Assembly: GCF_031846405.1 (NCBI RefSeq)
Contig: NZ_JAVRHU010000001.1
Coordinates: 235,160 to 299,159, forward strand
Source of the DNA: Croceitalea vernalis
GTDB taxonomy: Bacteria > Bacteroidota > Bacteroidia > Flavobacteriales > Flavobacteriaceae
DNA: 64,000 bases
Reading direction: 5' to 3'
The notes beneath the pieces were generated by a model. The model had not been told where the DNA came from. It ran no database searches and worked only from the letters and a program-made list of their open reading frames with translations. The translations under genes and the position numbers were made by a program. Shown here piece after piece: positions 3,437 through 18,073 of the stretch (position 1 is its first letter; each line of letters begins with the position of its first letter).

Positions 3437-5821
3437 ATGAAGAATTTAGTATTATTATTGCTAATTGCAACGTTTCAATTAGGTTTTGCTCAAACAGGTG
3501 TTATAAAGGGCGTAGTAATTGATAAACAATCAGAACAACCACTGGAAGGCTCAACTATTGAATTACTTAATGTAGCAACAGCAACAGGAGTTATTACTGA
3601 TTTTGATGGCAGATTTACGTTGGAAAATGTGCCATTAGGTCGGCATGCTATACAAATTAGTTATATCGGATACGAGAGTTTAACGCTTCCCAACATTGAG
3701 GTAACCGCAGGAAAACAAGTTATTGTCAACATCAGTCTTTTAGAATCATTTAATCAACTAGATGAAATTATTCTGACGAATAATACCAACCAAGATAAGG
3801 CACTAAACAAATTAGCAACCGTTTCTGCTAGACAGTTTGGAGTAGAAGAAGTTACTCGATTTTCTGGAGGGCGAAGTGATGTAGGTAGGTTAGCAGCTAA
3901 CTTTGCAGGAGTTTCTGCGCCTAATGATAGTAGAAATGACATTGTGGTACGAGGTAATAGCCCCACTGGACTTTTATGGCGACTGGAAGGTGTTCCTATT
4001 CCGAGCCCGAATCATTTTTCAACCGCAGGTACCACTGGTGGACCTGTTTCTGCTTTAAATCCAAATCTTTTAAAAAATTCAGATTTTATTACTTCAGCAT
4101 TCCCGGCGGAATACGGAAATGCTATAGGAGGTGTTTTTGACTTGGGGTTTAGAACAGGAAATCCAGATTCTTATGAATACACATTGCAAACAGGAATATT
4201 TACAGGTATTGAAGCCATGGCTGAAGGTCCTTTGGGCACTAACAAAGGGTCTTTTGTTGTTGCTGCTAGATATTCCTTGGTTGGTTTATTAGGTGTAGGA
4301 GCTGGTGGAACCTCAGCCGTACCCAATTACAATGACCTATCTTTTAATCTCGATTTTGGAAAGGTTAATAACGGCAGTCTATCCTTTTTTGGCATTTTAG
4401 GAGGTTCAGATATTGAGTTTCTCGGTGATGATATTGATGAAAAAGATCTGTTCGCTGCAGAAGATGAAAATAGTTTTGCCGACTCTAAATTCGGAGTACT
4501 CGGACTTAAGTACAATTTAAGTATTGGAGACAAAGCGTATTTAAAAACTATACTTTCTGGATCTTATTCCGGAAATACTTTTTTTGCTGATAGATTTATT
4601 GACAAAAATACCCCCGAAGAGCGTTTGATAAGATTTACAGACGCTGATAATACAGAAGTACGGTTTACACTTTCTACACTTTTTAATAATAAAGTCACTA
4701 ATAAATTCAGCTTTAGAACAGGATTACTATTTGAAAACTTTAATATTCAAAATCTATTGAGAGATAGAAACGAGCAAGCAGATACAAATGGAGACGGTGA
4801 TCCTGATTTAATAACCTTTACCGACATTGATGAGAACATCAGTCTTATTCAACCTTACATTCAAGGTCAATTAAGATTAAGCGAAACTTTAACCTTAAAT
4901 GCCGGTCTACATTCGCAATACAGTACATTAAATAAACAATTCGCTTTAGGGCCCAGAGCAGCCGTAAATTATCAATTTTCACCTAATCACGCCCTTAATT
5001 TTGGTTACGGATTGCATTATCAAAATATCCCATATCCTTTACTCTTTTTAAATGAAAATGTTGGTGGAAACATTTCACAAACAAATAAAGACCTAGACTT
5101 TGTTCAAAGCAGTCATTTTGTTCTAGGTTATGATGTTAAATTAGGGAATTCATGGAGAGGAAAATTGGAGTTATACCGCCAAGATATTAATGGAGCTGGT
5201 GTTGAATCTAATCCCTCTAGTTATTCAAGTTTAACTGAAGGTGCAGATTTCATTTTTCAAAATGACCGAGTATCATTGGTAAATGATGGAACTGGGTTCA
5301 ATCAAGGTATTGAATTTACGTTGGAGAAATTTTTTAGCAAAGGGTATTATGGCCTATTTACTGGTTCCTTCTTTGAAAGTAAATATGAAGGTAGTGATGG
5401 TATTGAAAGAAATAGCCCCTTTAATAATGGTTATGTTATTAACATTTTGGCGGGTAAAGAATTTAAAATTGGAAATTCAGGAAATAAAACTCTTTTTGTC
5501 GATACTCGTGTCACCAATTCTGGTGGACGCTATTTTACTCCTGTAGATTTAGAAGCGTCGCAGTTGGCCGGTTTCGAAATTTTGAGAGAAGATGAAGCTT
5601 TCAGCCAACAATTAGACGACTATTTCAGATGGGACGTTAAGTTTGGAATTAAAATTAACAGCAAAAACAAAAAACGTTCTCATCAACTTTATTTTGATTT
5701 GCAAAATATAACGGCAAACGAAAATATTTTCACAAGAAGATATAACCGATTGACAAATCAAGTTGATCAAGTAGACCAAATAGGATTTTTTCCTGATTTT
5801 GGTTACAAGTTTCAATTTTAA
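3437..5821 (+). CDS. TonB-dependent receptor with carboxypeptidase-regulatory-like N-domain
   Basis: Signal peptide MKNLVLLLLIATFQLGFAQ. CarbopepD_reg-like stretch (TGVIKGVVID...GSTIELL). Plug region (IVVRGNSPTG). Ends in an aromatic C-terminal residue (F). The ORF track starts at 3413, but the internal Met at 3437 gives a canonical signal peptide. Confidence 0.8.
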   Translation: MKNLVLLLLIATFQLGFAQTGVIKGVVIDKQSEQPLEGSTIELLNVATATGVITDFDGRFTLENVPLGRHAIQISYIGYESLTLPNIEVTAGKQVIVNISLLESFNQLDEIILTNNTNQDKALNKLATVSARQFGVEEVTRFSGGRSDVGRLAANFAGVSAPNDSRNDIVVRGNSPTGLLWRLEGVPIPSPNHFSTAGTTGGPVSALNPNLLKNSDFITSAFPAEYGNAIGGVFDLGFRTGNPDSYEYTLQTGIFTGIEAMAEGPLGTNKGSFVVAARYSLVGLLGVGAGGTSAVPNYNDLSFNLDFGKVNNGSLSFFGILGGSDIEFLGDDIDEKDLFAAEDENSFADSKFGVLGLKYNLSIGDKAYLKTILSGSYSGNTFFADRFIDKNTPEERLIRFTDADNTEVRFTLSTLFNNKVTNKFSFRTGLLFENFNIQNLLRDRNEQADTNGDGDPDLITFTDIDENISLIQPYIQGQLRLSETLTLNAGLHSQYSTLNKQFALGPRAAVNYQFSPNHALNFGYGLHYQNIPYPLLFLNENVGGNISQTNKDLDFVQSSHFVLGYDVKLGNSWRGKLELYRQDINGAGVESNPSSYSSLTEGADFIFQNDRVSLVNDGTGFNQGIEFTLEKFFSKGYYGLFTGSFFESKYEGSDGIERNSPFNNGYVINILAGKEFKIGNSGNKTLFVDTRVTNSGGRYFTPVDLEASQLAGFEILREDEAFSQQLDDYFRWDVKFGIKINSKNKKRSHQLYFDLQNITANENIFTRRYNRLTNQVDQVDQIGFFPDFGYKFQF

Positions 5822-5854
5822 GCGTCATATAGTCAACAATCAAAAGCAACAATC

Positions 5855-5977
5855 ATGAAAAAAGTAAAAGAAAAAACTCAAAAGAATGCAAAAGAAATAA
5901 AGACTACTACCTTTAGCCTAAATAGAAAAAAACTATCAAAACCTCGTTTTATATGGTGGGGTTGGAAAACAGTTTAA
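5855..5977 (+). CDS. candidate 40-aa small protein (Lys-rich N-terminus, W-rich tail KPRFIWWGWKTV)
   Basis: ATG-initiated ORF absent from the ORF track. It sits 33 nt after the receptor stop and 4 nt before the next gene. Translation: MKKVKEKTQKNAKEIKTTTFSLNRKKLSKPRFIWWGWKTV. Confidence 0.2.
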   Translation: MKKVKEKTQKNAKEIKTTTFSLNRKKLSKPRFIWWGWKTV

Positions 5978-5981
5978 AAAG

Positions 5982-6521
5982 ATGAAGAAAATAGCGCTCA
6001 TTTTAGGGATAATTATAATTGGCCTTATCGCCTTTGTTCAATTGAGAAAACGTGAAACTTCACCAGATTTTTTAAATAAAGAATTTGGTGAAATAGAAAA
6101 GTTATTTTCCAAAAGAGATTTTGCAAATCCTGAAGTTTCGAAGGCGAATGTTGCTTGGCACCTAGATCATATGTTAAAGACAATCAATCAAGTTTCGAAA
6201 AAGTTAATCGATTCTGATCCAGGTGCGTTTCGTTCAAATTTTAGTCCCCAAAGAACTTTTGTACATACTTCTGGTATAATTCCAAGAGGAGCTGCAGAGT
6301 CACCAAAAAATGTAAGACCACCCGAAGTTGTTTTATTAGATAGTCTTGAAAGACAGTTAAGTCTAGCAAAAATTAACTTAAAAAAAATCACAGATCTAAA
6401 TGAGAAAGCAAATTTTCAACATCCCATATTTAAGCAACTAGATCGTGACCAAACCAGACGATTTCTTGATGTGCATACCAACCATCATCTAAAAATTATT
6501 CGAGATATTTTAAATGATTAA
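5982..6521 (+). CDS. DinB/DUF1569-like protein with N-terminal TM anchor
   Basis: N-terminal hydrophobic helix. HLDHM...HTNHHL histidine pattern typical of the DinB_2/DUF1569 four-helix bundle. Confidence 0.45.
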   Translation: MKKIALILGIIIIGLIAFVQLRKRETSPDFLNKEFGEIEKLFSKRDFANPEVSKANVAWHLDHMLKTINQVSKKLIDSDPGAFRSNFSPQRTFVHTSGIIPRGAAESPKNVRPPEVVLLDSLERQLSLAKINLKKITDLNEKANFQHPIFKQLDRDQTRRFLDVHTNHHLKIIRDILND

Positions 6522-6542
6522 TTTTAATGTTATGACTAAATT

Positions 6543-7088
6543 CTAATCATAAACTTCAACAATCAATTCTATTTCAACACATTGACCTCTGGGCAAAGAC
6601 GCCATACCTACAGCTGCCCTTGCATGTTTTCCTTTTTCTCCAAATACTTCAACCATCAAATCAGAAAACCCATTAATGACTTTGGGTTGATCTACAAAGG
6701 AAGGCTCGCAATTAACCATACCCAGCACTTTAACAACACGTTTTACTCTATTAAGGTTACCAAGCATTGATTTGAGTACAGCAAGTTGATTAATCGCCGT
6801 AAGGCGTGCACCTTCATAGGCTTTTTCAATAGTAACATCTTTACCAACCTTACCTGTAATTTCTGTGCCATCGGCATATCTTGGCCCTTTACCTGCTAAG
6901 AAGATAAGATTTCCAGTTTGTACCCCATTCACATAATTAGCTACAGGTTGTGGGGGACTCGGTAAGGTGATACCTAATTCTTGTAATTTGGCCTCTGGAT
7001 CATAATCTTTTTCGGGCTCTTCTTGACCAAATGAAACAATGCCAGTTAAAATAATTATCGGAATAAGTAATTGACTAATTTTTTTCAT
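6543..7088 (-). CDS. RidA/YjgF-family reactive-intermediate deaminase with cleavable signal peptide (exported)
   Basis: C-terminal signature ARAAVGMASLPRGQCVEIELIVEV. N-terminal MKKISQLLIPIIILTGIVSFGQ signal peptide. The 5' end overlaps the upstream gene by 14 nt. Confidence 0.75.
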   Translation of the reverse strand: MKKISQLLIPIIILTGIVSFGQEEPEKDYDPEAKLQELGITLPSPPQPVANYVNGVQTGNLIFLAGKGPRYADGTEITGKVGKDVTIEKAYEGARLTAINQLAVLKSMLGNLNRVKRVVKVLGMVNCEPSFVDQPKVINGFSDLMVEVFGEKGKHARAAVGMASLPRGQCVEIELIVEVYD

Positions 7089-10000
7089 TTTCTACTTTTT
7101 TACGCGGTTCAAAATCAGCTTCTTTCCAGAGCGCATTACTATCATAATAATTACCATTCGTAATTACTGCGGAAACCGTTCTTAGGTTAGAAATATCTTT
7201 AAGCGGGTTTTTATCCAGTATAGCTATATCAGCCTCTTTGCCTATTTCTAAACTACCCGTTTGTTGTTCCATCTTCATTACCCTAGCTGGGATAATGGTG
7301 GCGGTTTGAATAGCCTCAAAAGGAGTTAGCTTTGCAAGTTTATGGTAAGCCTCTATTTCTTGATACAAACTAAAAACCGGCACTATATTATCTGTACCCG
7401 CTACAATTGGTACACCTGCTCTAAAAAAGTGTCCTATTATTTCTAAATACTTGGTATATCTAGCCTTTCGCTCTAGTGATGCTTCTAGACTTACTCCCTT
7501 TCTATTCCTTTTGGGTTCCCATAACTCATAAGCTATTCTTGGCGCATCTGGTTCAATTGTTTTTAAAGCTTTTCCCTCCTGTAAAGAAGTGATAATTCTT
7601 ATATTCATTGTAGGATCCAAAACAATTTTATGTTCCAATAGAAAGTCAGTTGCTCTTTTAATCTGATCACTACTAATCGCATTATAATCTATTTCTAGTT
7701 TCCCAAAATTCTTTTTTTTCTCATTAGGAAAAAGTAATGAGGTTATCGCTCTATCATGACTAAACATATTCATTCCCAATTTTACAGCATCTGCAACGGT
7801 TCCAACAGGTGTAGGTATATGTCCAGTTACTGTAACCCCTCTTTTATGTGCCTCTTCGGAAAGCACTTTTAAGATGTCAGGTTCTATTGAGTTATAAATT
7901 TTTATCTGCTTATACCCTAGGTCAATATATCTTTTTATAACATCTTTTGCTTCTTGTTCCGTTCTTGCTCGAATAATTCCATTACCTTTTTTTCCAGGTC
8001 CATCGGTCATTCCCGCTAAGAGAATATCTGGCCCTAGTTTACCTTCTTTTGCAATGGCATCCTTAAAAGCGGTAGCAAACTCAATCTCATTACCATTATC
8101 TCTGATTGTAGTTACGCCTCCGGCCAAGTAGGCAGGTGCCCATGGTACTTGATTGCTATGAGCATGCATATCCCAAAGCCCAGGAATGAGTGTTTTTCCT
8201 TTTACATCAATAATTTTTGCCTCCGTCGGAAGTTCTATTTTGCCTTCATCTTCTATCTTGGCAATACGTCCATCTTGGATAAGTAAAACTTTATTTTTTT
8301 GGGTTTTATCATGAATACCATCTACTATATCTCCGCCTACTAAAGCAATAGTTTTGAATGGTTGTTTCTTTTGATTTTTGGTATATGTTGCTAAATCTGT
8401 CATTTGTTCTGCAACATGCCCTTCTATAAAGGTCGACATTGCAGATTCATAGCCCCTTTTAATAACTTCTCGAATTTGGGTATTAGCTTTAACTAAAGCA
8501 ACGAGATTTTTATGCTTATCTAGCCAAACCGTTCTACCACCCCAATTGATTCCTTCAACAACATATCTATCTAGTATTTGCTGTTTCCCCTTAATTTGTA
8601 TGGTGTCTTTAGCCGTATGCCTAATCTCAATTTTACCTCGGGGCAAAGTAGTTAGGCCTTTTGGCCATTCTCCATTCTTAAAATAATAATGATATAACAT
8701 CATTTCCATAGCAGCTGGAATATTGCTATGAAGTGGAAAAAACGCCTCCTTGATATTTATCGTAACAGGGTCAAAGTATTCTTCCAATATTGTTGCTTGA
8801 TTATCGTGCAACTCCATTTTAAAAATGTTTGTTGTGTCTCCACGAGCAATTCGGATACTACTATAAAATTGAGGCGAAAATCCATCCTTAGTTACTTCTA
8901 AAACTGATTGAACACCAGATATTCTACCTCTTTCATTTTCACCTTGTAAAGACTCAATATGCAGGTTGTCTTTTTGGTTAACAATATTGAATGTCTCTTC
9001 TCCAATTAAAGACTGTCTCCGATAAACTAAAAAAACTCCTTTTTGATCTATATTTTCTAGAGCAGTGTCTTTATAACGATTAAAGTAATATCTATTGACT
9101 TCATCAGAATTACTTACTACAATATCCGGCAAACCATCTCTATTTAAATCATCAGTATAAATGTCATAAGTGAAAGAATCTTTATCTGATAAAGTAATCT
9201 TCTCCCAATTCTTTCCATTATTTGAATTGATAAAAACATGATTAGGTTGTCTAAAATTTCCAACAACGATATCGTCATTTCCATCAAGATTGAAATCTGC
9301 AGTGCTTAATGAAGAAGTATTATCCGAAACGGAATCATATACTATTTGAGATTCATATTTTAAAGTACTACTCCCGAAGTAGATTCTATTAGGTTCGCCA
9401 ATATTAGCACTAACAATATCTAGATATCCATCATTATTTACATCTGTGATGGCAACAGCTCTGGTATTATCTTTTCCACTGCCAAAAGGAACTTTTGTTG
9501 TAAAATTTAATTGACCGTTGTTTATATAAACATAATTTTGTTGTTCATCTCTATTGGCTAGTATAAGATCGTTATCTCCATCATTATCCATATCTGCTAC
9601 TTCTACATCAATAGTAGAATCACTCATACTACCAAAACCAAGAGACTGATTAAATTTTCCTTTCCCATTGTTTAGACATATTTCATTTTGTCTTCCTCTA
9701 TTGGTAATTAGAATATCTTCATCACCATCATTATCAATATCTGCAACAATAATATTTCTCGTTGGTGCATAATTTTCTCCAAAGTTGCCTGCTTTAGTAA
9801 AATTTCCTTTACCGTCATTTATAAAAAGGCAATTGGGTGCCATATCATTACCTACGGCGATATCAAGGTCCCCATCATTATCAAAGTCGGCTAAATCTGT
9901 TGAATAGCTAGTTGCTCTTTCAGCACCAAGAGGTTTAGAGACCGAAAATTTTCCGCTACCATTATTAAAGAAAATCCTATTTTGACCAGGCCAATGTCTT

Positions 10001-10176
10001 CCATTAGCTAAAACCACGTCCTTATCACCATCATTGTCTAAATCACCTACACCCATAGAAGCAGTCCGTTCTATATGAGTTCCAAAGATTAACCTGTTAT
10101 TAGTAATGAATTTTACCGATTGGCTTTGAACAGCGAAGCCAATAAAAAGGAATAAGAAAAGAGGTGTTTTGGTCAT
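7075..10176 (-). CDS. 1033-aa exported protein: N-terminal 7x FG-GAP/VCBS (DxDxDGxxD) beta-propeller fused to C-terminal amidohydrolase-superfamily domain
   Basis: Signal peptide. Seven D-[LIV]-D-N-D-G-D-x-D repeats in residues about 40-350. C-terminal region carries the HxH metal motif (GLWDMHAHS) plus later His/Asp residues (TGHIP, AGTDN) typical of TIM-barrel amidohydrolases. Confidence 0.7.
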   Translation of the reverse strand: MTKTPLFLFLFIGFAVQSQSVKFITNNRLIFGTHIERTASMGVGDLDNDGDKDVVLANGRHWPGQNRIFFNNGSGKFSVSKPLGAERATSYSTDLADFDNDGDLDIAVGNDMAPNCLFINDGKGNFTKAGNFGENYAPTRNIIVADIDNDGDEDILITNRGRQNEICLNNGKGKFNQSLGFGSMSDSTIDVEVADMDNDGDNDLILANRDEQQNYVYINNGQLNFTTKVPFGSGKDNTRAVAITDVNNDGYLDIVSANIGEPNRIYFGSSTLKYESQIVYDSVSDNTSSLSTADFNLDGNDDIVVGNFRQPNHVFINSNNGKNWEKITLSDKDSFTYDIYTDDLNRDGLPDIVVSNSDEVNRYYFNRYKDTALENIDQKGVFLVYRRQSLIGEETFNIVNQKDNLHIESLQGENERGRISGVQSVLEVTKDGFSPQFYSSIRIARGDTTNIFKMELHDNQATILEEYFDPVTINIKEAFFPLHSNIPAAMEMMLYHYYFKNGEWPKGLTTLPRGKIEIRHTAKDTIQIKGKQQILDRYVVEGINWGGRTVWLDKHKNLVALVKANTQIREVIKRGYESAMSTFIEGHVAEQMTDLATYTKNQKKQPFKTIALVGGDIVDGIHDKTQKNKVLLIQDGRIAKIEDEGKIELPTEAKIIDVKGKTLIPGLWDMHAHSNQVPWAPAYLAGGVTTIRDNGNEIEFATAFKDAIAKEGKLGPDILLAGMTDGPGKKGNGIIRARTEQEAKDVIKRYIDLGYKQIKIYNSIEPDILKVLSEEAHKRGVTVTGHIPTPVGTVADAVKLGMNMFSHDRAITSLLFPNEKKKNFGKLEIDYNAISSDQIKRATDFLLEHKIVLDPTMNIRIITSLQEGKALKTIEPDAPRIAYELWEPKRNRKGVSLEASLERKARYTKYLEIIGHFFRAGVPIVAGTDNIVPVFSLYQEIEAYHKLAKLTPFEAIQTATIIPARVMKMEQQTGSLEIGKEADIAILDKNPLKDISNLRTVSAVITNGNYYDSNALWKEADFEPRKKVENEKN

Positions 10177-10218
10177 GTGCTAAACTATTTTAAAATGAAA
10201 GGAAAAGAGAAACATAAA

Positions 10219-11301
10219 TTAAGACTGCAATACTTCATCATAATACCGCAAGAAATTTAGACCCAATATTTTTTCAATATCACCAGTGCTATAGCCTCTT
10301 TTTTCAAGAAGTCTTGTTACATTTTGATATCTATCTGTTTCATCAAGCTCAGGAATCCATGGTGGCCATTGTACTTTATAAGAAGGTTTGAACCGTGTTA
10401 ATCGAGGTACGTACCAATTCTCTCTTGTTGCGCCATTCGCCTCTAATCCTTGTATCGGATAATCAGCAGCTAATCCCACATGGTCTATCCCTCCAACTTT
10501 CACAGCATGATCTATATGGTCTACGTAAGTTTCTAGAGTTGTATCAACACCTAAGTTTGGCCCTAACATATAGCCAAGGCATATAATACCCATTACTCCT
10601 CCTTTATTTGCCATAGCTTTTATCTGTGCATCTGTTTTAGCACGGGGATGATTTTTATGTAGTGCCTCACACATAGAGTGGTTAATCATTGCCCCAGTTT
10701 TACTGAACTCAATACCATCATCGGTAGTTTGTCTACCACAATGAGAAAGATCAATAATAATACCTAGTTCATTCATGCGATTAACTGCTTCTATACCGAA
10801 ATCGGAAAGTCCCGCATTGGTTCTTTCTGTGCAGCCATCACCAATCAAATTACGTTCATTGTAAGTAAGCTGCATCCAACGAGTTCCGGCTTGATATAGA
10901 ATATCTAGATTATCTATATCATTTACAATCATTCTCGAATTTTGAAAACCAAAGAGTACTGCAACTTTGTTTTCTTTTTTTGCACGCTTGAAGTCTTCTG
11001 CAGTAGTCGCGTGAATTAATTTGTCACTATTATCATCTACAATGTCTTTCCAATTTACCAAAGAAAGTAATGATCTATTTAAGTTGAAAGAATCTAAGGA
11101 AACATTAAAGCCGGAATACCCGGTCTTTGCGAGGGCGGCAAAAGAAGCTTTATCCCAGTTTCTGCCTATAATGAGACCATCTATAACTATGGATTGGTTA
11201 TAAACCTTGCTCTCCTTATTAAAGGCAGCCTTAGCATCATAGGTTAAAAGGGATGATAAGGCTCCAAGTGCTGCAAGTCTATTAAATTCTCCTCTATTCA
11301 T
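10219..11301 (-). CDS. membrane dipeptidase, peptidase family M19 (dehydropeptidase-like), exported
   Basis: M19 motifs DLSHCG and HVGLAADYP. N-terminal signal-like segment MNRGEFNRLAALGALSSLL. Confidence 0.8.
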   Translation of the reverse strand: MNRGEFNRLAALGALSSLLTYDAKAAFNKESKVYNQSIVIDGLIIGRNWDKASFAALAKTGYSGFNVSLDSFNLNRSLLSLVNWKDIVDDNSDKLIHATTAEDFKRAKKENKVAVLFGFQNSRMIVNDIDNLDILYQAGTRWMQLTYNERNLIGDGCTERTNAGLSDFGIEAVNRMNELGIIIDLSHCGRQTTDDGIEFSKTGAMINHSMCEALHKNHPRAKTDAQIKAMANKGGVMGIICLGYMLGPNLGVDTTLETYVDHIDHAVKVGGIDHVGLAADYPIQGLEANGATRENWYVPRLTRFKPSYKVQWPPWIPELDETDRYQNVTRLLEKRGYSTGDIEKILGLNFLRYYDEVLQS

Positions 11302-11399
11302 TTTTAAGGTGGTTATTTAGCCTAAGTTAGTAAATATTAGACTCCACTTACTTGATGATAAAAGAATTTTGGTTTCAAATTGAGAAATTTGTGATTACC

Positions 11400-12425
11400 T
11401 TATTTTTGAGGGATTATGTTATTTAAATCATAAAAATAGAAGTTCTTAGCATCGTTCATTGCTACAAAAAGTCCATTAGGAAAAGTATCATTAAGAGGCA
11501 CAGTTACAACTTCACAACCATCGGTTTCAAGTGTTGCAAGATTTACAGCTTTTATAAATGTGTTATCTTCTTGTGAAAAAATATTAAACTCTCCCTGCTG
11601 CTGATTGGAAACAATAAGTTGCCCCTTCCCATGCTCATAAGTCGCAATGGCGATACCCTCTATATCCTTTAAAAAGTATTCTCCGCCAAAGCAAGATATT
11701 TCTTCATTCCCCATACTTGGCTCAGCATAATATTTTCGAATACAAACTCCTTCATCAGAATAATAAACAAAACCCATTTCGTCATCTACAGCAATGGCTT
11801 CAATTTCTTTTTGACCACTAAAAGCGCCGAACTTCCTAACTAAATTTGACTGAATTTCTAAGCTATCTGCCTTTAGTTCATACTGATATAGATAATTAGT
11901 TGCAGGCCCTGTTTTTCTGCCTACAATAGCATAAATTTTAGAGTCCTTGGGTGACTTATATAGCGAAATTCCCATTGGTAAATTCTGCTCAAATTCTGTG
12001 GCATCTTTAAAAACTTGAAAACCTCCATTATCCAATGGTTTCATATCTGGCACAGAATACATTCTAATTTGTTGTTTTTCTCTTTCGGTAAAAACAAGAA
12101 TGTCTGTTTGGGTAGTGTCGTTAATTTGAAAACCATATTCCACATCCACATTATTAGGTCGCTGAATGTTTCTTATAGTTTTTTCTTCAATTATTTTTCC
12201 TTCTAAATCAAAAGCATATATCGCGCCATTTGTTTCTTTATCAGTACCAAACACAATGCTCTTTGAAGCATCCTTAGGATTTACCCAAATTGCAGGGTCA
12301 TCAGTATCATTTAATGTGGTTTCTGTAACAATGTCTGGTTTTATGGGAATAAGCTTGCTTTTTTTACATGATGTAAGACCTATTAAGACTAAAAAAAAGA
12401 TACTAATTTGTTTCATAATATTCAA
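11400..12425 (-). CDS. beta-propeller phytase (3-phytase, BPP family) lipoprotein
   Basis: Lipobox LTSC. DDPAIWVNPKD motif closely matches the Bacillus PhyC-type BPP signature. Confidence 0.75.
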   Translation of the reverse strand: MNIMKQISIFFLVLIGLTSCKKSKLIPIKPDIVTETTLNDTDDPAIWVNPKDASKSIVFGTDKETNGAIYAFDLEGKIIEEKTIRNIQRPNNVDVEYGFQINDTTQTDILVFTEREKQQIRMYSVPDMKPLDNGGFQVFKDATEFEQNLPMGISLYKSPKDSKIYAIVGRKTGPATNYLYQYELKADSLEIQSNLVRKFGAFSGQKEIEAIAVDDEMGFVYYSDEGVCIRKYYAEPSMGNEEISCFGGEYFLKDIEGIAIATYEHGKGQLIVSNQQQGEFNIFSQEDNTFIKAVNLATLETDGCEVVTVPLNDTFPNGLFVAMNDAKNFYFYDLNNIIPQK

Positions 12426-12484
12426 TTTAAGACAAAACCGCCCTCTTTTTCAAAAGGACGGTTTTAAGGCTAAACTAACTTAAA

Positions 12485-15319
12485 CTATTTTTTAAATAAG
12501 TCATATTTTAGGCCAAAAGTAAACCTAAGACTATAAAACTCTACTTGTTGTGTTCTTGCACTTACCCCTTGAAAGTAACGTAAAGGTTGATTTGTAATAT
12601 TATTGAGGTCTGCGTAAAGTCTTAATTTATTATTGATTGCATATGAAGCATTAAAATCCAAAAATGTTTGAACATCATAGTACCTATCTTCAAAAGCATT
12701 ACCGCCTATCTCATCGATATAAGAATCTGAGAAGTTTAATGATAGTCTTGCACTAAACTTTTTGTCAGCATAGCCTAAAGAACCATTGAACATATTTGGT
12801 GCTGTATTAGGTAAATCTAAATCGGTACGTTCATCACCATCTTCATTACGAATGCCATCAGCACTTGAAGTCAAGAACGTATAATTGAGGTACAAACTAA
12901 AATTTCTAGCAAAGCCTGGTAAAAAATCTAATTGCTTTTGAAAAGCGACTTCTGCCCCGAATATAGTGGCTTTATCTCCATTTAAAGGTTGAAATAAATC
13001 AAATCCTGCTGAACCGGCACCGAATGAGTCATCAGGAGCTTCAGAAATAAATGTGTAAACAAAATCATTTATATTCTTATAAAAAAGACCACCAGAAATA
13101 AGACCTACGCTTTTAAAATAGTGTTCTGCCATTACATCAAAATTCATTGATGTTGTTGGATCTAGCTCAGGATTTCCTACAAAAATTTCTTCGTCACCTT
13201 CTACAAGATCGGAGAAAGGTGTTAGATCAACATAGTTAGGCCTTGCTAAAGTATTTGTCCAAGCAAGTCTTAAAATTGTATTATCAGAAACATCATATTT
13301 AAAGTGCAGACCTGGCATAATATTCGTGTATGAACTTTCATTTGTTGTTTCTCCTATTACTTCCTCTTCATCTAATATTTGATTTCCAGTAGCTGTTATT
13401 TTAGTGTTCTCTAAACGTAAACCCGCTATAACACTTAACTTATCTGAAAGCTTTTGGTTTGCCATAATATATGCGGCCCACACATCTTCACTAACATCAA
13501 AATTATCTCTTAGAAATTCATCAGGAACTGATTCGCCAGCGTTATCGGTCAAATCAAGTCCACCTAAGAAAACCTCATCAGGATATAATCCCGCTTCGTA
13601 TTGACTACCAGCCAAGAAATTAGAATCCGTATAGCTTTTAGTCGGAAAATCGGCTAAAGTTGGATATTGGTCTTCTAAGTCAAATTCAAAAAAGTTATTA
13701 TCTCTAAACTTCTTTTTAAAACGACCTCTTGCACCAAATTTGACTGTTCCATCACCATTTCCAAAAAAATCAGAAGGAAGTTCAAAATTAATGAAGAAGT
13801 TAATATCTTCTTCTTCTGTATATTGAGTTTCATTGGTGATTTCATCAAACTCAAAAGCGCTTAAATCGTTAACATCTGCAGCATTTTCTGCGGTCATTAT
13901 TGGAAATTCGGGGTCAGTATTATCATTTAATACCGAATACTCCGCTACATATTGTGCATAACGTTCATCCAATCTTTCTTCATAAGCCTTTGCATATGAA
14001 GCCATCCAATCCATTTTCAAGCTTCCAAATAAATGGTTACCGCCGAGACTATAATTTTGCATTCTCTGGTCTTCCAACCGTCGATTTTTATTTCTATCAT
14101 TATTAATTCCCCCTTTTGTTTCTCTAGCAATTTCAGCTGGGAACCTTGTAGGAACCCCATTAGTGATTGTGAAGTCATCAACACCAATATCCTCTGGGTC
14201 TAAAATCTCTTGAGCTAAGACAAAACGATTTTCACGATCATCTCGCCAATTATACATGGTCTTTAAATAAATAGTGTTGTCCGCATTAAAATTATAATCA
14301 AAATTTGCGGCAAAACTTCTACGAATACGCTGTACCAAATAGGTGCGTTGTTCACTTACGTTTGTGTAAGGATTTACATCCAACTCTTCTTCTTCACCGT
14401 CCTCGTTGGTAAAGGCAAACTCATCAGTCCATTCCGCTTCTACATTGTCAGAACCAAAATCGTTATCATTAATTGAGGCCGACACCATCCAACCAAATTT
14501 GCCATCCTTACTCCGGTCGCCAACTAATAAAGAACCATTTAAAATTCTTTTGTCAGTAATAAAATTGATTCCTGAACCAGCAGTGGCAGAAAGTCTAAAG
14601 CCTTGCGGAGCAGTTCTAGTAACCAAGTTCACAGAACCACCAAGGGCATCAGCATCCATATCGGGAGTTACTGCTTTGTTTACTTCAATGGTCTGAATCA
14701 TATCTGAAGGAATTAAATCCATCTGAATATTTCTGTTATCCCCTTCTGCAGAGGGAATACGGCTACCATTTAAGGTTACGGAATTAAGTTGTGGTGATAA
14801 ACCACGAACAATAATATTTCGTGCTTCACCCTGATCAACTTGCATAGTAATTCCAGGTATTCGCTTTACTGCATCTCCAATATTAGCATCTGGGAACTTC
14901 CCTATCTGGTCCGTAGATACTACATTGGTAATGTTAAGATTTGTTCTTTGAGTGTTAAGCGCTTTTGCTGTACCACTTATTCCATAGGCAGATACTTCAA
15001 CACCCTCTAATTCAACATTAGTGGAATTCATATTTAAATTCACTACTGTTGTTTCTCCATTAATTACTGTAATTTCTTGAGAAACGGGTGAGTATCCAAT
15101 ATAAGAGATCTCTAGTGTATAGGTGCCTTCCGGCACCGCTACAATGGTAAAGCGACCATCAAAGTTAGATATTGCCCCTTTTTCAATTGAAGCGATATAA
15201 ACGCTAGCACCAGGTACATAAATCCCATTTTCATCCGAAATGGTGCCCTGAATATTTCCCGTTTGAGCAAAAATAAATGAGGTAAAAAATAAACTTAAAA
15301 GACTTAAACTACTTTTCAT
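12485..15319 (-). CDS. TonB-dependent receptor (CarbopepD_reg-like N-domain + plug + barrel)
   Basis: Signal peptide. TGNIQGTISDENGIYVPGASV carboxypeptidase-regulatory-like domain. Plug motifs (IIVRGLSPQ). C-terminal aromatic-rich barrel ending ...DLFKK. Confidence 0.8.
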   Translation of the reverse strand: MKSSLSLLSLFFTSFIFAQTGNIQGTISDENGIYVPGASVYIASIEKGAISNFDGRFTIVAVPEGTYTLEISYIGYSPVSQEITVINGETTVVNLNMNSTNVELEGVEVSAYGISGTAKALNTQRTNLNITNVVSTDQIGKFPDANIGDAVKRIPGITMQVDQGEARNIIVRGLSPQLNSVTLNGSRIPSAEGDNRNIQMDLIPSDMIQTIEVNKAVTPDMDADALGGSVNLVTRTAPQGFRLSATAGSGINFITDKRILNGSLLVGDRSKDGKFGWMVSASINDNDFGSDNVEAEWTDEFAFTNEDGEEEELDVNPYTNVSEQRTYLVQRIRRSFAANFDYNFNADNTIYLKTMYNWRDDRENRFVLAQEILDPEDIGVDDFTITNGVPTRFPAEIARETKGGINNDRNKNRRLEDQRMQNYSLGGNHLFGSLKMDWMASYAKAYEERLDERYAQYVAEYSVLNDNTDPEFPIMTAENAADVNDLSAFEFDEITNETQYTEEEDINFFINFELPSDFFGNGDGTVKFGARGRFKKKFRDNNFFEFDLEDQYPTLADFPTKSYTDSNFLAGSQYEAGLYPDEVFLGGLDLTDNAGESVPDEFLRDNFDVSEDVWAAYIMANQKLSDKLSVIAGLRLENTKITATGNQILDEEEVIGETTNESSYTNIMPGLHFKYDVSDNTILRLAWTNTLARPNYVDLTPFSDLVEGDEEIFVGNPELDPTTSMNFDVMAEHYFKSVGLISGGLFYKNINDFVYTFISEAPDDSFGAGSAGFDLFQPLNGDKATIFGAEVAFQKQLDFLPGFARNFSLYLNYTFLTSSADGIRNEDGDERTDLDLPNTAPNMFNGSLGYADKKFSARLSLNFSDSYIDEIGGNAFEDRYYDVQTFLDFNASYAINNKLRLYADLNNITNQPLRYFQGVSARTQQVEFYSLRFTFGLKYDLFKK

Positions 15320-15451
15320 TTTCTGAGTGGTTAATTATAGACCACAAAGAACTTGGAAATAGGTATAATATGAGGTTAGTTAATTTTTAAGATTAAATCA
15401 ACTTTAGTCAAAATAACATGGTAGTTTAAAATAACCTAACAGTTAGTTAAC

Positions 15452-15477
15452 AAAAAACCCCCACCAAAGGTGAGGGT
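15452..15477 (-). terminator. rho-independent terminator after rpmA
   Basis: On the minus strand, hairpin CCCTCACC-TTTG-GGTGGGGG is followed by a TTTTTT run, immediately downstream of the rpmA stop. Confidence 0.55.
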
Positions 15478-15502
15478 TCTATATTTTTAGAAAAAGAATA
15501 TT

Positions 15503-15763
15503 TTATGCTTCAAAAGGTTCTATAGAAACATATGACTTTCCGCCTACTTTCTTTTCAAATTTTACCAAGCCATCAACTTTCGCATGTAACGTGTGGTCTT
15601 TACCTGCGTAAACATTTTCACCTGGGTTGTGTTTTGTACCTCGCTGTCTAACGATAATGTTACCAGCTATTGCAGCCTGACCGCCAAAAATCTTAACACC
15701 TAATCGTTTCGATTCTGACTCTCTACCGTTCTTTGAACTACCTACACCTTTTTTATGTGCCAT
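15503..15763 (-). CDS. rpmA: 50S ribosomal protein L27
   Basis: [24 protein letters not shown] is the canonical L27 N-terminus. Confidence 0.95.
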
Positions 15764-15802
15764 TTTTCTACGGTTTTATATTGTTATACCAGATGGTTGA
15801 CC

Positions 15803-16480
15803 TTATGCCTTACCACCGTCTAATTCATCTTGCCATTTTTTAAGCTCATCCCACTTACCATCAGCTGCTAATTTAGCTTGTGCTGGCCAAGTGTCAGTAA
15901 CATGATTACCGCGAACTTCAGAAATAATTTCAGAAATTTTTGCTGGTTTAGCTTTCGCTAAATCAGCAAAAGTAGCGATACCTGCTTCAATTAGAGTTGA
16001 AGCAATCTTTGGTCCAATACCTTCTATTTTCTTTAAATCATCAGCTTTTGCTTTGGCAGTTGCCTTTTTAGCTGGAGCTGCTTTTTTAGGAGCTGCCTCT
16101 TTTTTTGGAGCGGCTTCCTTTTTTGTTGTTGCTGCTTTAGTCTTTGCCGGAGAAGCTTTCTTAGCTCCCTTAGCAACAATGCTTTCCACAACAATCTCAG
16201 TCAAAGATTGTCTATGACCATTCTTCTTTCTGTAACCTTTACGTCTTTTCTTATGAAAAACGATTACTTTATCACCTCTAAGGTGCTTAACGACTTTGGC
16301 CTCTACGGCCGCACCGTCTATGACTGGGGCGCCAATAGTAACGCTACCATTATCATCTAAAAGAAGTACTTTATCAAAAGTTACCTTTTTACCTTCTTCA
16401 GCTTGTAAACGGTGAACGTACACTTTTTGGTCTTTCGCAACTTTAAACTGCTGCCCTGCCATCTCTACAATTGCGTACAT
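15803..16480 (-). CDS. rplU: 50S ribosomal protein L21 with about 100-aa Ala/Lys-rich plus HhH-like C-terminal extension
   Basis: [14 protein letters not shown]...[20 protein letters not shown] is the L21 core of about 105 aa. It is followed by [34 protein letters not shown] repeats and an IEGIGPKIA...FADLA helix-hairpin-helix-like segment. Confidence 0.85.
16040..16150 (-). repeat. in-frame low-complexity tandem repeats ([12 protein letters not shown]) inside the rplU extension
   Basis: The plus strand shows reiterated gctgc-tttttt-ggag units. The translated repeat is [20 protein letters not shown]. Confidence 0.4.
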
Positions 16481-16529
16481 ACTGATTATATTAAATTATT
16501 CACTGAGCTATTTTCTCAAATAGCGGGTG

Positions 16530-16560
16530 CAAATATACTGCTAAATCCTTAATCTACAAG
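16530..16560 (-). promoter_or_regulatory. putative Bacteroidetes sigma-A promoter for rplU-rpmA (-33 TTG / -7 TATATTTG)
   Basis: The minus strand reads cTTGtagattaaggatttagcagTATATTTGcacc: TTG, a 19-nt spacer, then TAnnTTTG, about 45 nt upstream of the rplU start. Confidence 0.35.
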
Positions 16561-16750
16561 AATTTTTAGCCATTTAAGTAAATTATTTCTTCCCATTGAG
16601 AACAATTTAATTATCTGACTAATTCTTCTATAATTTCTTGTTAAAGAAATAGTAGTTTTCATTCCGACACTACAAAAAAATTATATTCGTGTAACATTAT
16701 TAAGAATTGTAATACAAACATTTAAAATCTTTAATTCTAAACACTAAAAA

Positions 16751-18073
16751 ATGAAAAAAAATTGCTTGAGTTTCTTTGGCGTTCTTTTTTCAATGAGCTT
16801 AGTTTTTTCGCAAGAAGTAGCCTTTGAAGAATACGATTTAGATAACGGTATGCATGTAATTCTGCACCAAGATAATAACGTACCAGTAGTAACTGTTGCC
16901 GTCTCGTACCATGTTGGGTCAAAAAATGAAAATCCGAATAAAACAGGGTTTGCTCATTTCTTTGAGCATCTTTTATTTGAAGGAACTAAAAATATTGAAC
17001 GTGGTGAATGGTTTAAACTTGTGTCTTCCAATGGTGGCAGTAATAATGCAACCACAAACTATGATCGTACCTACTATTATGAGAATTTTCCATCAAATAA
17101 TCTAGAATTAGGACTTTGGATGGAATCGGAGAGATTACTTCATCCTGTTATCAATCAAATTGGAGTAGACACTCAAAAAGAAGTTGTACAAGAAGAAAGA
17201 CGACTACGAGTAGATAATGCTCCCTATGGTAGATGGCAAGAACAAATGTTCAAAAACCTATTCACCAAACACCCATATAATTGGACTGTTATTGGTTCAC
17301 TAGAGCATTTGGCTAGTGCTTCGTTAGAAGACTTTCAAAATTTCAATAAAAAGTTTTACGTACCAAACAATGCCGTATTAGTAGTGGCAGGAGACTTGGA
17401 AATAGAGAAAACAAAAAAAATGATTCAAGATTATTTTGGTCCTATTCCTCGAGGTGCTGATGTTGTTCAGAACACTTTTATTGAAGACCCTATACAAGGG
17501 CCTGTAAAAGTTAAATTTGAAGATCCAAATATTCAAATTCCTCTAATAATGATGGGGTATCGCACACCTGGTCAGACCGAACGTGATGCTTATGTGCTTG
17601 ATATGATTTCTACATATTTGAGTGATGGTAAAAGTTCCAAGCTTTATAAAAAGCTAGTAGACGATAAAAAAATGGCTTTACAAGTATTTGCTTTCAATGG
17701 TTCTCAAGAAGACTACGGTGCCTATATCGTAGGGGGCTTACCTGTTGGGGAAACATCTTTAGAGGATATTATGAAAGAGGTTGATGAAGAAATAGTGAAG
17801 GTTCAAACGGAACTAATTTCAGAAAAGGATTACCAAAAACTTCAAAATAAAGCAGAGAATAATTTTGTGAATTCAAATAGCAGTATCGCGGGAATCGCTG
17901 GTTCATTAGCAAATTACCATTTACTTTATGATGATACTAGCTTAATTAATACTCAAATAGATATCTACCGCAGCATCACCAGAGAAGAGATTAGAGATGT
18001 CGCCGCTAAATATCTTAAAGTAAATGAGCGTGTAGAACTGGAATATCTACCTGAACAAAAAAATGCTAACTAA
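16751..18073 (+). CDS. M16-family zinc peptidase (pitrilysin/insulinase-like, catalytic subunit), exported
   Basis: Signal peptide. Inverted zinc motif HFFEHLLFEGT (HxxEH). Confidence 0.85.
   Translation: MKKNCLSFFGVLFSMSLVFSQEVAFEEYDLDNGMHVILHQDNNVPVVTVAVSYHVGSKNENPNKTGFAHFFEHLLFEGTKNIERGEWFKLVSSNGGSNNATTNYDRTYYYENFPSNNLELGLWMESERLLHPVINQIGVDTQKEVVQEERRLRVDNAPYGRWQEQMFKNLFTKHPYNWTVIGSLEHLASASLEDFQNFNKKFYVPNNAVLVVAGDLEIEKTKKMIQDYFGPIPRGADVVQNTFIEDPIQGPVKVKFEDPNIQIPLIMMGYRTPGQTERDAYVLDMISTYLSDGKSSKLYKKLVDDKKMALQVFAFNGSQEDYGAYIVGGLPVGETSLEDIMKEVDEEIVKVQTELISEKDYQKLQNKAENNFVNSNSSIAGIAGSLANYHLLYDDTSLINTQIDIYRSITREEIRDVAAKYLKVNERVELEYLPEQKNAN

Follow-up and report, generated by a model that had tools for sequence, protein, structure and literature searches.

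An exported Rid1-like protein encoded beside putative amide hydrolases in Croceitalea vernalis, and the modular gene cassette to which it belongs in Bacteroidota

Closest described systems and the Croceitalea locus

Rid-family proteins are regarded as guards against reactive imines in the cytoplasm or in organelles. In a 64,000-nt stretch of the Croceitalea vernalis genome (RefSeq assembly GCF_031846405.1, contig NZ_JAVRHU010000001.1, positions 235,160 to 299,159; hereafter the window), three adjacent genes encode a protein with a peptidase M19 fold, a fusion of an FG-GAP beta-propeller with an amidohydrolase, and a Rid-family protein that carries an export signal. The three genes represent a pared-down version of a larger cassette of modular make-up, of which the M19-like and amidohydrolase genes form the core and the FG-GAP and even the Rid components are facultative. 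The ingredients are of known kinds, namely Rid proteins paired with producers of imines or enamines, loci that resemble polysaccharide utilization loci (PULs), and carboxypeptidases of the amidohydrolase superfamily (AHS). A literature search, with incomplete journal coverage, returned no description of the cassette, of an exported bacterial Rid1 protein or of a link between M19 and Rid proteins. This agrees with the first-pass annotation of the window, which knew of no described system with such a composition.

In Escherichia coli, the ureidoacrylate amidohydrolase RutB, which has an isochorismatase fold, supplies the enamine of RutC. The rut operon encodes RutC, a member of the Rid family that deaminates 3-aminoacrylate (PMC8113886), and this operon resembles the Croceitalea locus in combining an amide hydrolase with a Rid-family deaminase that handles an enamine. 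It provides a cytoplasmic precedent for the logic proposed in the first-pass annotation, in which a hydrolase releases an enamine and a Rid protein deaminates it. The Rut system is cytoplasmic and RutC belongs to another Rid subfamily, whereas the locus described here has M19-like and AHS hydrolases and export signals. Extracytoplasmic Rid proteins have also been described, namely the M-beta subunit of the periplasmic LAO1 of Chlamydomonas and the product of the lao-cccA-ridA cluster of Gluconacetobacter diazotrophicus (PMC5053998). The earlier remark that an exported Rid protein is unusual is therefore correct as far as it goes, but such a protein is not unprecedented. In LAO1, as predicted for the window, a Rid protein lies outside the cytoplasm beside a nitrogen-releasing enzyme (M-alpha), where it plausibly speeds ammonium release (PMC5053998). 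The partner there is a flavin oxidase, whereas here hydrolases are the conserved partners, with hardly ever an oxidase in the vicinity. RutC is the nearest mechanistic precedent and the oxidase/Rid complex of Chlamydomonas the nearest topological one.

The genes of the locus are as follows (the accessions of the three C. vernalis proteins were assigned by exact look-up).

10219-11301, minus strand: M19-like protein (Peptidase_M19 fold), 360 aa, WP_311383847.1, database label "dipeptidase"
7075-10176, minus strand: propeller-amidohydrolase fusion, 1033 aa, WP_311386665.1, database label "FG-GAP-like repeat-containing protein"
6543-7088, minus strand: Rid-family (Rid1-like) protein, 181 aa, WP_311383845.1, database label "RidA family protein"
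7075-7088, minus strand: 14 nt shared by the 3' end of the fusion gene and the 5' end of the Rid gene

The M19-like and fusion genes are separated by 42 nt, and the spacing between the fusion and Rid genes is -14 nt. The fusion stop codon TAG occupies positions 7075-7077 and the ATG of the Rid gene positions 7086-7088, inside the fusion tail GAA AAT GAA AAA AAT TAG. This overlap suggests translational coupling of the two genes. The earlier description of three co-directional and tightly spaced genes, the last two overlapping by 14 nt, is exact to the coordinate.

Features of the three proteins

The Rid protein scores 72.2 bits against PF14588 (YjgF_endoribonc; cut-off 35) and 44.8 bits against PF01042 (Ribonuc_L-PSP; cut-off 27.3), whereas TIGR00004, the model of RidA proper, gives 35.9 bits against a cut-off of 106.25. 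Among chains in the Protein Data Bank (PDB), its closest relatives are 3d01 (1e-36), PA0814 (5e-26) and ACIAD3089 (4e-18), with RidA-type chains at 6e-5 or weaker. Judged from these matches, the exported protein is Rid1-like and not RidA; of the earlier label "exported RidA", the family and the export hold and the subfamily does not. The best solved relatives are Rid1 proteins (PA0814 and ACIAD3089; PDB 9bk9, 9bkb, 3d01), with which it has the active-site Tyr, Arg and Glu in common. A conserved Arg (R105 of RidA), together with the active-site Tyr and Glu, was used here as the mark of the deaminase-competent subfamilies RidA and Rid1-3, which this combination is reported to separate (PMC4433059). 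The corresponding residues R157 (in HARAAVG), Y52 and E172/E174 are invariant in 22 Rid homologs and have their counterparts in the alignments with 3d01 and PA0814. For PA0814 of Pseudomonas aeruginosa and ACIAD3089 of Acinetobacter baylyi, deamination of 2-aminoacrylate and of several imino acids is on record, as is complementation of a ridA mutant (PMC5619798). The window protein thus has the Tyr/Arg/Glu set of active imine deaminases and groups with Rid1 proteins of proven imine and 2-aminoacrylate deaminase activity.

The window family differs from the solved Rid1 proteins in an extra Sec or lipoprotein signal followed by a conserved PExxYDPEAKL linker. In the alignments, the solved relatives show no comparable leader: 3d01 aligns from chain residue 15 (query residue 32) and PA0814 from residue 18 (query residue 55). 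Sequence identity of the Rid proteins across bacterial classes is unusually high (75-90%), and that of the M19-like proteins is 67-80%. In the comparative study of the Rid family, the in-vivo substrates of subfamilies Rid1-3 are given as unknown, and signal peptides, the periplasm and dipeptidases are not mentioned (PMC4433059). A systematically exported, highly conserved Rid1-like protein that is tied to exported amide hydrolases offers a testable physiological context for Rid1.

The first-pass annotation had assigned signal peptides to all three products. For the Rid and fusion proteins this is clear. The N-terminus of the Rid protein, MKKISQLLIPIIILTGIVSFG followed by QEE, is a signal peptide of the signal peptidase I (SPI) type with the mature protein starting at about Q22, and the fusion begins with the Sec/SPI signal MTKTPLFLFLFIGFAVQS followed by QS. 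In each signal, a basic n-region is followed by a hydrophobic core, the residues at -3 and -1 are small, and Gln occupies +1. A Gln at +1 is expected of SPI substrates in Bacteroidetes, as stated by the Q-rule (PMC5837995), and both signals fit this rule because Gln stands at that position. Moreover, an export signal is present in 81 of 81 Rid homologs (a lipobox Cys in 62, the SPI type in 19), so export is a trait of the family and not an artefact of a misannotated start codon. Signals are also present on the neighbouring metallo-beta-lactamase (MBL)-fold proteins, on separately encoded FG-GAP proteins and on unfused amidohydrolases, most of which are lipoproteins.

For the M19-like protein, the assignment holds less firmly. 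Its homologs begin with a classical twin-arginine translocation (Tat) motif (consensus KRRDFVKxLPLGAL). The N-terminus of the window copy (positions 11257-11301) reads MNRGEFNRLAALGAL, and the signal continues to DAKA before AF, with a predicted cleavage between MNRGEFNRLAALGALSSLLTYDAKA and AF. Inspection of its Tat region, NRGEFNRLAALGAL, against the family consensus and the general Tat pattern (S/T-R-R-x-F-L-K ahead of a mildly hydrophobic h-region) indicates a single Arg at the motif, the twin arginine having degenerated from RR to RG. The closest relative, from another Croceitalea (locus L084, positions 7001-8083), reads RA, and loci L085 and L086, which are 81% identical, keep KRRKF. No longer open reading frame (ORF) lies upstream of the M19-like start in the window. 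Export of the M19-like protein thus appears firm for the family and plausible for the window copy. Across the cassette family, Rid is usually a predicted lipoprotein and the M19-like protein usually a predicted Tat substrate.

The M19-like protein matches PF01244 (Peptidase_M19) with 249 bits, over profile positions 63-317 only, with positions 1-62 unmatched. In canonical M19 enzymes, the binuclear zinc set comprises, in human numbering, His20, Asp22, Glu125 (bridging), His198 and His219, with Asp288 as the catalytic residue. The active site was mapped through HMMER alignments to Sco3058 and 2i5g and through a census of 108 homologs (49-100% identity). The corresponding positions in the window protein are as follows.

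HxD ligands His20/Asp22: replaced by L43/I45, in the strand VIDGLII
Bridging Glu125: replaced by Q120
Beta-site His pair: kept, as H187 and H208
Catalytic Asp288: equivalent kept, as D280
Canonical His152: replaced by Y147

Three of the five zinc ligands are thus replaced and the catalytic Asp is present. In all 108 homologs, His20 is replaced by Leu, Ile or Met, Asp22 by Ile, Phe or Val, Glu125 by Gln and His152 by Tyr; both beta-site His residues remain, as does the catalytic Asp. The window protein has no His at all in residues 1-96. What the protein has in common with human DPEP1 and Streptomyces Sco3058 is therefore the TIM-barrel family, as assigned by Pfam, along with the catalytic Asp and the two His of the beta site; it differs in the loss of the alpha-site ligands and of the bridging Glu, and in the Tat export of its family. 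The closest solved structure is 2i5g (8e-48), an uncharacterised 325-aa protein of P. aeruginosa with the same VIDGLII and GFQN substitutions; a literature search on 2I5G found no paper. From its length and organism, 2i5g is presumably PA5396. PA5396 appears in the literature merely as a "putative dipeptidase" that heads the dimethylglycine (dgc) operon.

The earlier call of an M19 dehydropeptidase-like dipeptidase therefore stands at the level of the Pfam family and falls at the level of the DPEP1 type. Going by the residues mapped, the protein has an M19 fold, but the label of a DPEP1-type dehydropeptidase or binuclear zinc dipeptidase is unsupported; DPEP1-like dehydropeptidase activity should not be assumed because the canonical metal site is not conserved. 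The whole subfamily is probably mis-annotated as zinc dipeptidases. A global MAFFT alignment of M19-like and canonical M19 proteins was set aside because it put the HxD strand near the N-terminus in the wrong place; its human DPEP1 sequence served as a guide only, and the canonical control was a protein from an Ekhidna metagenome-assembled genome (L038:10532-11515). This protein is a second, signal-less M19 paralog encoded directly downstream of an exported Rid. It matches profile positions 7-315 and keeps DFHCD, IEN, DFSH, SHS and GADY, that is, the HxD, Glu, His, His and Asp residues.

The earlier reading of the 1033-aa protein as a propeller-amidohydrolase fusion is borne out by Pfam, with FG-GAP_3 in six stretches (E=1.6e-55) and Amidohydro_1/3, and by the structure prediction that had been suggested at that time. 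The AlphaFold2 model (pLDDT 75.7) comprises a propeller (residues ~28-356), an all-beta region (377-573), a long helix (577-602) and an amidohydrolase barrel, which reveals an additional domain, termed MID here, between the two that were anticipated.

9097-10095, minus strand: FG-GAP propeller domain, ~aa 28-360, with seven DxDxDG-type calcium-binding loops
8359-9066, minus strand: MID domain, aa 371-606, with an all-beta half-barrel followed by a long helix
7078-8358, minus strand: AHS domain, aa 607-1033, a binuclear barrel

The N-terminal part has the repeats and the seven blades of an FG-GAP beta-propeller; in the model it is all-beta over residues 28-356, with pLDDT mostly 80-92, and its fold matches CRTAC1. 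Because the whole-chain fold search was swamped by the amidohydrolase domain, MID was modelled and searched alone (pLDDT 86.7). Foldseek matched it to DUF1849, RseB, LprG, LolA and LolB (E 3e-5 to 1e-2), with TM-scores of ~0.5 and ~8% sequence identity. Conserved motifs in MID are QGENERGRI and INWGGRT, and an ortholog has a weak Pfam match to DUF6134. The LolA/RseB-like barrel in this model is a weak hint that the substrate may have a hydrophobic or acyl part.

In the AHS domain, the ligands H671/H673, K759, H786, H807 and D929 are invariant in 23 sequences. They correspond to the HxH, carboxylated Lys, His, His and Asp of binuclear members on a (beta/alpha)8 fold, and the top Foldseek matches are 2p9b, 3mtw, 2qs8 and 3mkv. 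Neighbours in sequence and fold include Cc2672, Sgx9260b/c, Xaa-Pro dipeptidases (prolidases), ochratoxinase/ADH3 and molinate hydrolase, enzymes that release a C-terminal amino acid or cut an N-acyl or aryl amide. These carboxypeptidases, prolidases and ochratoxinases are nearest in fold, and we take them to be Raushel's cog1228 group. The window domain shares their fold and metal ligands, whereas its identity to them is 17-23% and it has the LolA-like barrel and the FG-GAP propeller added. NCBIfam equivalog scores are far under the cut-offs; NF051886 (Xaa-Pro dipeptidase, Caulobacter type), for example, gives 100.9 bits against a cut-off of 500. The domain has every ligand of a binuclear metal site, and in fold it matches enzymes that remove an acyl or aminoacyl group from the amino acid at the C-terminus.

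Distribution and composition of the cassette

A scan with the Rid alignment, in one genome per species, gave 380 matches, of which the best 80 loci were taken; a second scan was anchored on the M19-like gene in metagenomes, and again the best 80 matches were used. Neighbouring genes were identified by tblastn and ORF clustering. Among the Rid loci, 52 from different species had at least 6 kb of sequence upstream and 2.5 kb downstream of the Rid gene, and nearby genes on the same strand were counted in these.

M19-like gene present: 33 of 52 loci
AHS gene present: 34 of 52
M19-like and AHS genes both present: 30 of 52
FG-GAP gene present: 14 of 52
All three present (full triad): 10 of 52
None of the listed partners: 4 of 52

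In the scan anchored on the M19-like gene, an adjacent AHS gene was found in 24 loci and a Rid gene in 16. Carriers belong to Flavobacteriia (Maribacter, Polaribacter, Winogradskyella), Cytophagia (Algoriphagus, Roseivirga, Imperialibacter, Ekhidna) and Saprospiria (Lewinella, Portibacter). Dozens of species show this arrangement, far more than chance neighbourhood would explain. Conservation outside the Croceitalea genome, without which the first-pass annotation would have withdrawn its proposal, is therefore well established for the association, with M19-like and AHS genes together in more than half of the well-flanked Rid loci. The triad that it had treated as the unit is one of several forms.

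The arrangement of the FG-GAP component is variable. It is fused to the amidohydrolase in the window and in L004, L005 and L011 (~21 protein clusters, 1026-1046 aa), and elsewhere is encoded by a separate exported gene of ~370 aa, located between the M19-like and amidohydrolase genes, between the amidohydrolase and Rid genes, or after Rid. This alternation of fused and separate forms argues for a functional link. The M19-like and Rid genes are directly adjacent in L001/L024, L017, L022 and L026. Relatives of the M19-like protein under ~62% identity have different neighbours. In a group of metagenome loci (L111-L119) with M19-like genes 60-66% identical to that of the window, there is a conserved set of neighbours comprising an opposite-strand 119-aa gene, exported 308-aa and 122-aa proteins, and a 132-135-aa protein.

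Fuller cassettes were found in uncultured marine Bacteroidota. In L106:16-14858 and L122:8-14932, the order is extracytoplasmic function (ECF) sigma factor, FecR anti-sigma factor, SusC with an STN domain, SusD, M19-like, AHS type 2 (~665 aa), FG-GAP, AHS type 1 (~689 aa), Rid and MBL. L099:58-14267 has the order of L106 without Rid, and a creatininase-family match (tblastn) follows its MBL gene. The L109 locus is cut short after SusC/SusD, M19-like, AHS and FG-GAP. These four loci share with Bacteroidota PULs the layout of ECF sigma and anti-sigma factors, SusC/SusD (with an STN-domain SusC) and periplasmic enzymes; they differ in having amide hydrolases and Rid instead of glycoside hydrolases. 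The window copy has neither SusC/SusD nor a sigma factor. A further arrangement, in L097, L098, L101, L103 and L104, consists of a signal-less PALP gene, AHS type 2, M19-like and a met-zincin-like lipoprotein, followed by sigma, anti-sigma and SusC. The pyridoxal phosphate (PLP) enzyme of the PALP family adjoins the amidohydrolase-M19 pair (L097:606-1550; also in L098 and L101). Its family suggests a Ser/Thr-dehydratase-like enzyme, a hint at a beta-hydroxy amino acid as one possible end product.

Rid genes without an M19-like neighbour often adjoin an MBL-fold gene (14 loci), a creatininase-family gene, a class-V aminotransferase with a Tat signal, another amidohydrolase or a sortilin/BNR protein. 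The class-V aminotransferase-fold PLP enzymes at L072:7243-8520 and L126:4588-5919 have the Tat signals SRRKF and SRRRF, respectively, and L081 likewise carries an aminotransferase with a Tat signal. A flavin amine oxidase with the Tat-like signal MQRKEFIKLSGLGLL lies near an exported Rid at L002:3481-4917 (minus strand). Judging from their families and signals, these other neighbours (creatininase-family, MBL-fold, aminotransferase and amine oxidase) would likewise be exported enzymes that cleave C-N bonds or form imines.

Possible functions and neighbouring genes in the window

We give about an even chance to the reading that the locus represents an exported amide-hydrolase cassette of Bacteroidota for an imported amide-bonded nitrogen compound, in which Rid1 deaminates an enamine or imine product. 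The substrate would probably be peptide-like, possibly acylated or hydrophobic, and processed in the periplasm or at the outer membrane. Successive cleavage of C-N bonds in this substrate may fall to the M19-like enzyme and to the amidohydrolase, the latter guided by its LolA-like barrel and the propeller. One product would be an unstable enamine or imine, such as one derived from a dehydro-amino acid or from an amino acid with another alpha modification, which Rid1 may hydrolyse to a 2-oxo acid and ammonium for uptake. The M19-like enzyme would use at most one metal, at the beta site (H187, H208), or none, and because of this its reaction is probably not classical dipeptide hydrolysis. Rid would be helpful but dispensable because imine hydrolysis is also spontaneous, which matches its facultative presence. 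The reaction order, the imine or enamine product and the nutritional role are what we infer from these features. Such a cassette would point to a nitrogen-acquisition route in marine Bacteroidota that is masked by the labels "dipeptidase", "amidohydrolase family protein" and "RidA family protein". Candidate substrates that were considered are mycosporine-like amino acids, peptidoglycan peptides, acyl-homoserine lactones, diketopiperazines and aminolipids; none is proposed, as none has direct support.

Several observations weigh against this reading. None of the enzymes that the window encodes is known as a source of imines or enamines, and the active site of the M19-like protein is non-canonical, such that the protein could even be non-catalytic. 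Given the degenerate Tat motif in Croceitalea, the three proteins may lie in different compartments. Some cassettes that are complete in other respects (L099, L093, L105 and L097-L104) have no Rid, which makes it facultative and not strictly needed by the hydrolases. The window itself lacks SusC/SusD and an ECF sigma factor, and its TonB-dependent receptor goes with a phytase-like gene. Finally, the loci are the 80 best matches of each scan and are biased to close relatives. A bolder extension, which we regard as rather unlikely, is that the Tat-exported M19-like clade, including 2i5g, consists not of peptidases but of a new class of TIM-barrel C-N hydrolases with no metal or one, acting on or producing an imine or enamine. 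Together with lipoprotein Rid1 and LolA-barrel amidohydrolases, these enzymes would form an extracytoplasmic pathway that mines nitrogen from an abundant yet neglected group of marine compounds, such as dehydro-amino-acid-bearing or acylated peptides.

The proposal closest to the first-pass annotation is that the M19-like protein is a DPEP1-type dehydropeptidase acting on Xaa-dehydroAla or dehydrobutyrine dipeptides from lanthipeptides, microcystins or thiopeptides, with Rid quenching the 2-aminoacrylate or 2-aminocrotonate released. Enamide hydrolysis followed by Rid action is coherent chemistry, the protein is assigned to M19 by Pfam and retains D280 and both beta-site His, and the adjacency of M19-like and Rid genes is conserved, in places gene to gene. 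However, this proposal is improbable given that three of five zinc ligands are replaced and His152 has become Tyr in every homolog of the census, that residues 1-96 contain no His and the Pfam match omits profile positions 1-62, and that the closest solved relative is the uncharacterised 2i5g. The loci also have no link to genes for peptides that are made on ribosomes and modified after translation (RiPPs) or for cyanotoxins, and the three kinds of peptide fragments named as substrates in the first-pass annotation are pure conjecture, as nothing points to them specifically. Alternatively, the hydrolases may free ordinary amino acids or amines, from which an exported oxidase or PLP lyase encoded elsewhere makes imines whose hydrolysis Rid1 speeds for ammonium scavenging, as in LAO1 M-alpha/M-beta. 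L-amino-acid oxidases with a Rid partner outside the cytoplasm are on record (PMC5053998), Rid proteins hydrolyse oxidase-made imines (PMC4433059, PMC5619798), and suitable candidates occur in the Tat-signal aminotransferases of L072, L081 and L126 and the Tat-like amine oxidase of L002. Nevertheless, this explanation is likewise improbable: among 160 loci, an amine oxidase was found in one or two and an aminotransferase in a handful, tblastn detected no oxidase or PLP gene of these kinds in the 64-kb window, and the M19-like and AHS genes are by far the commonest partners.

In a role in envelope housekeeping, the cassette would turn over acylated amino-acid or peptide lipids of the cell itself, or lipoprotein remnants, with the acyl chains held by the LolA-like barrel and the head group removed by the amidohydrolase. 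The likeness of MID to the lipid- and lipoprotein-binding half-barrels of LolA, LolB, RseB and LprG is in keeping with this, as are the lipoprotein nature of unfused AHS and most Rid proteins and the unusually high conservation of the Rid and M19-like proteins across classes. Such turnover is nonetheless distinctly unlikely, considering the low TM-score and identity of the Foldseek matches, the position of the genes behind ECF sigma, anti-sigma, SusC and SusD, which is typical of the uptake of external substrates, and the presence of the cassette in some genera only and in variable subsets, unlike a core envelope function. It is very improbable that these are unrelated exported enzymes, co-inherited or co-transferred as chance neighbours. 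Composition does vary, every component can be missing and all annotations are generic, but the same partners occur on the same strand in three Bacteroidota classes, with short gaps, the 14-nt overlap and a gene fusion, and only the four well-flanked loci noted above have none of the listed partners.

Two further genes lie upstream of the cassette in the same direction.

12485-15319, minus strand: TonB-dependent receptor (TonB-Xanth-Caul type)
11400-12425, minus strand: beta-propeller phytase-like lipoprotein, directly upstream of the M19-like gene

The receptor and phytase-like genes are separated by 59 nt, and the phytase-like and M19-like genes by 98 nt. This pair was considered as a general part of the cassette and rejected, as it accompanies the cassette only in Croceitalea (the window and L084) and in none of the other ~160 loci; it is probably a separate unit for phosphate acquisition. 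A scan of positions 5800-16800 for sigma-70 promoters and intrinsic terminators gave counts not above those in shuffled sequences, and the consensus is unsuited to Bacteroidota, hence the scan is uninformative on operon limits. In the 98-nt spacer, inspected visually, the only near-match to the Bacteroidetes -7 motif, TAnnTTTG, is TCAATTTG. Across the 64-kb window, tblastn found no second amidohydrolase and no MBL-fold, creatininase, class-V aminotransferase, PALP, SusC/SusD, sigma/anti-sigma or amine oxidase gene. On the other side of the cassette, a convergent 179-aa ORF (5982-6521, plus strand) ends 21 nt from the Rid stop codon; its product has an N-terminal hydrophobic segment and a DUF1569 match below threshold (17.8 bits, cut-off 21). 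Further upstream, ribosomal protein bL27 is encoded at 15503-15763 (minus strand), next to bL21 at 15803-16480 (minus strand). The bL21 protein matches PF00829 over residues 1-101 and has a Lys/Ala-rich C-terminal extension of ~120 aa with a helix-hairpin-helix motif.

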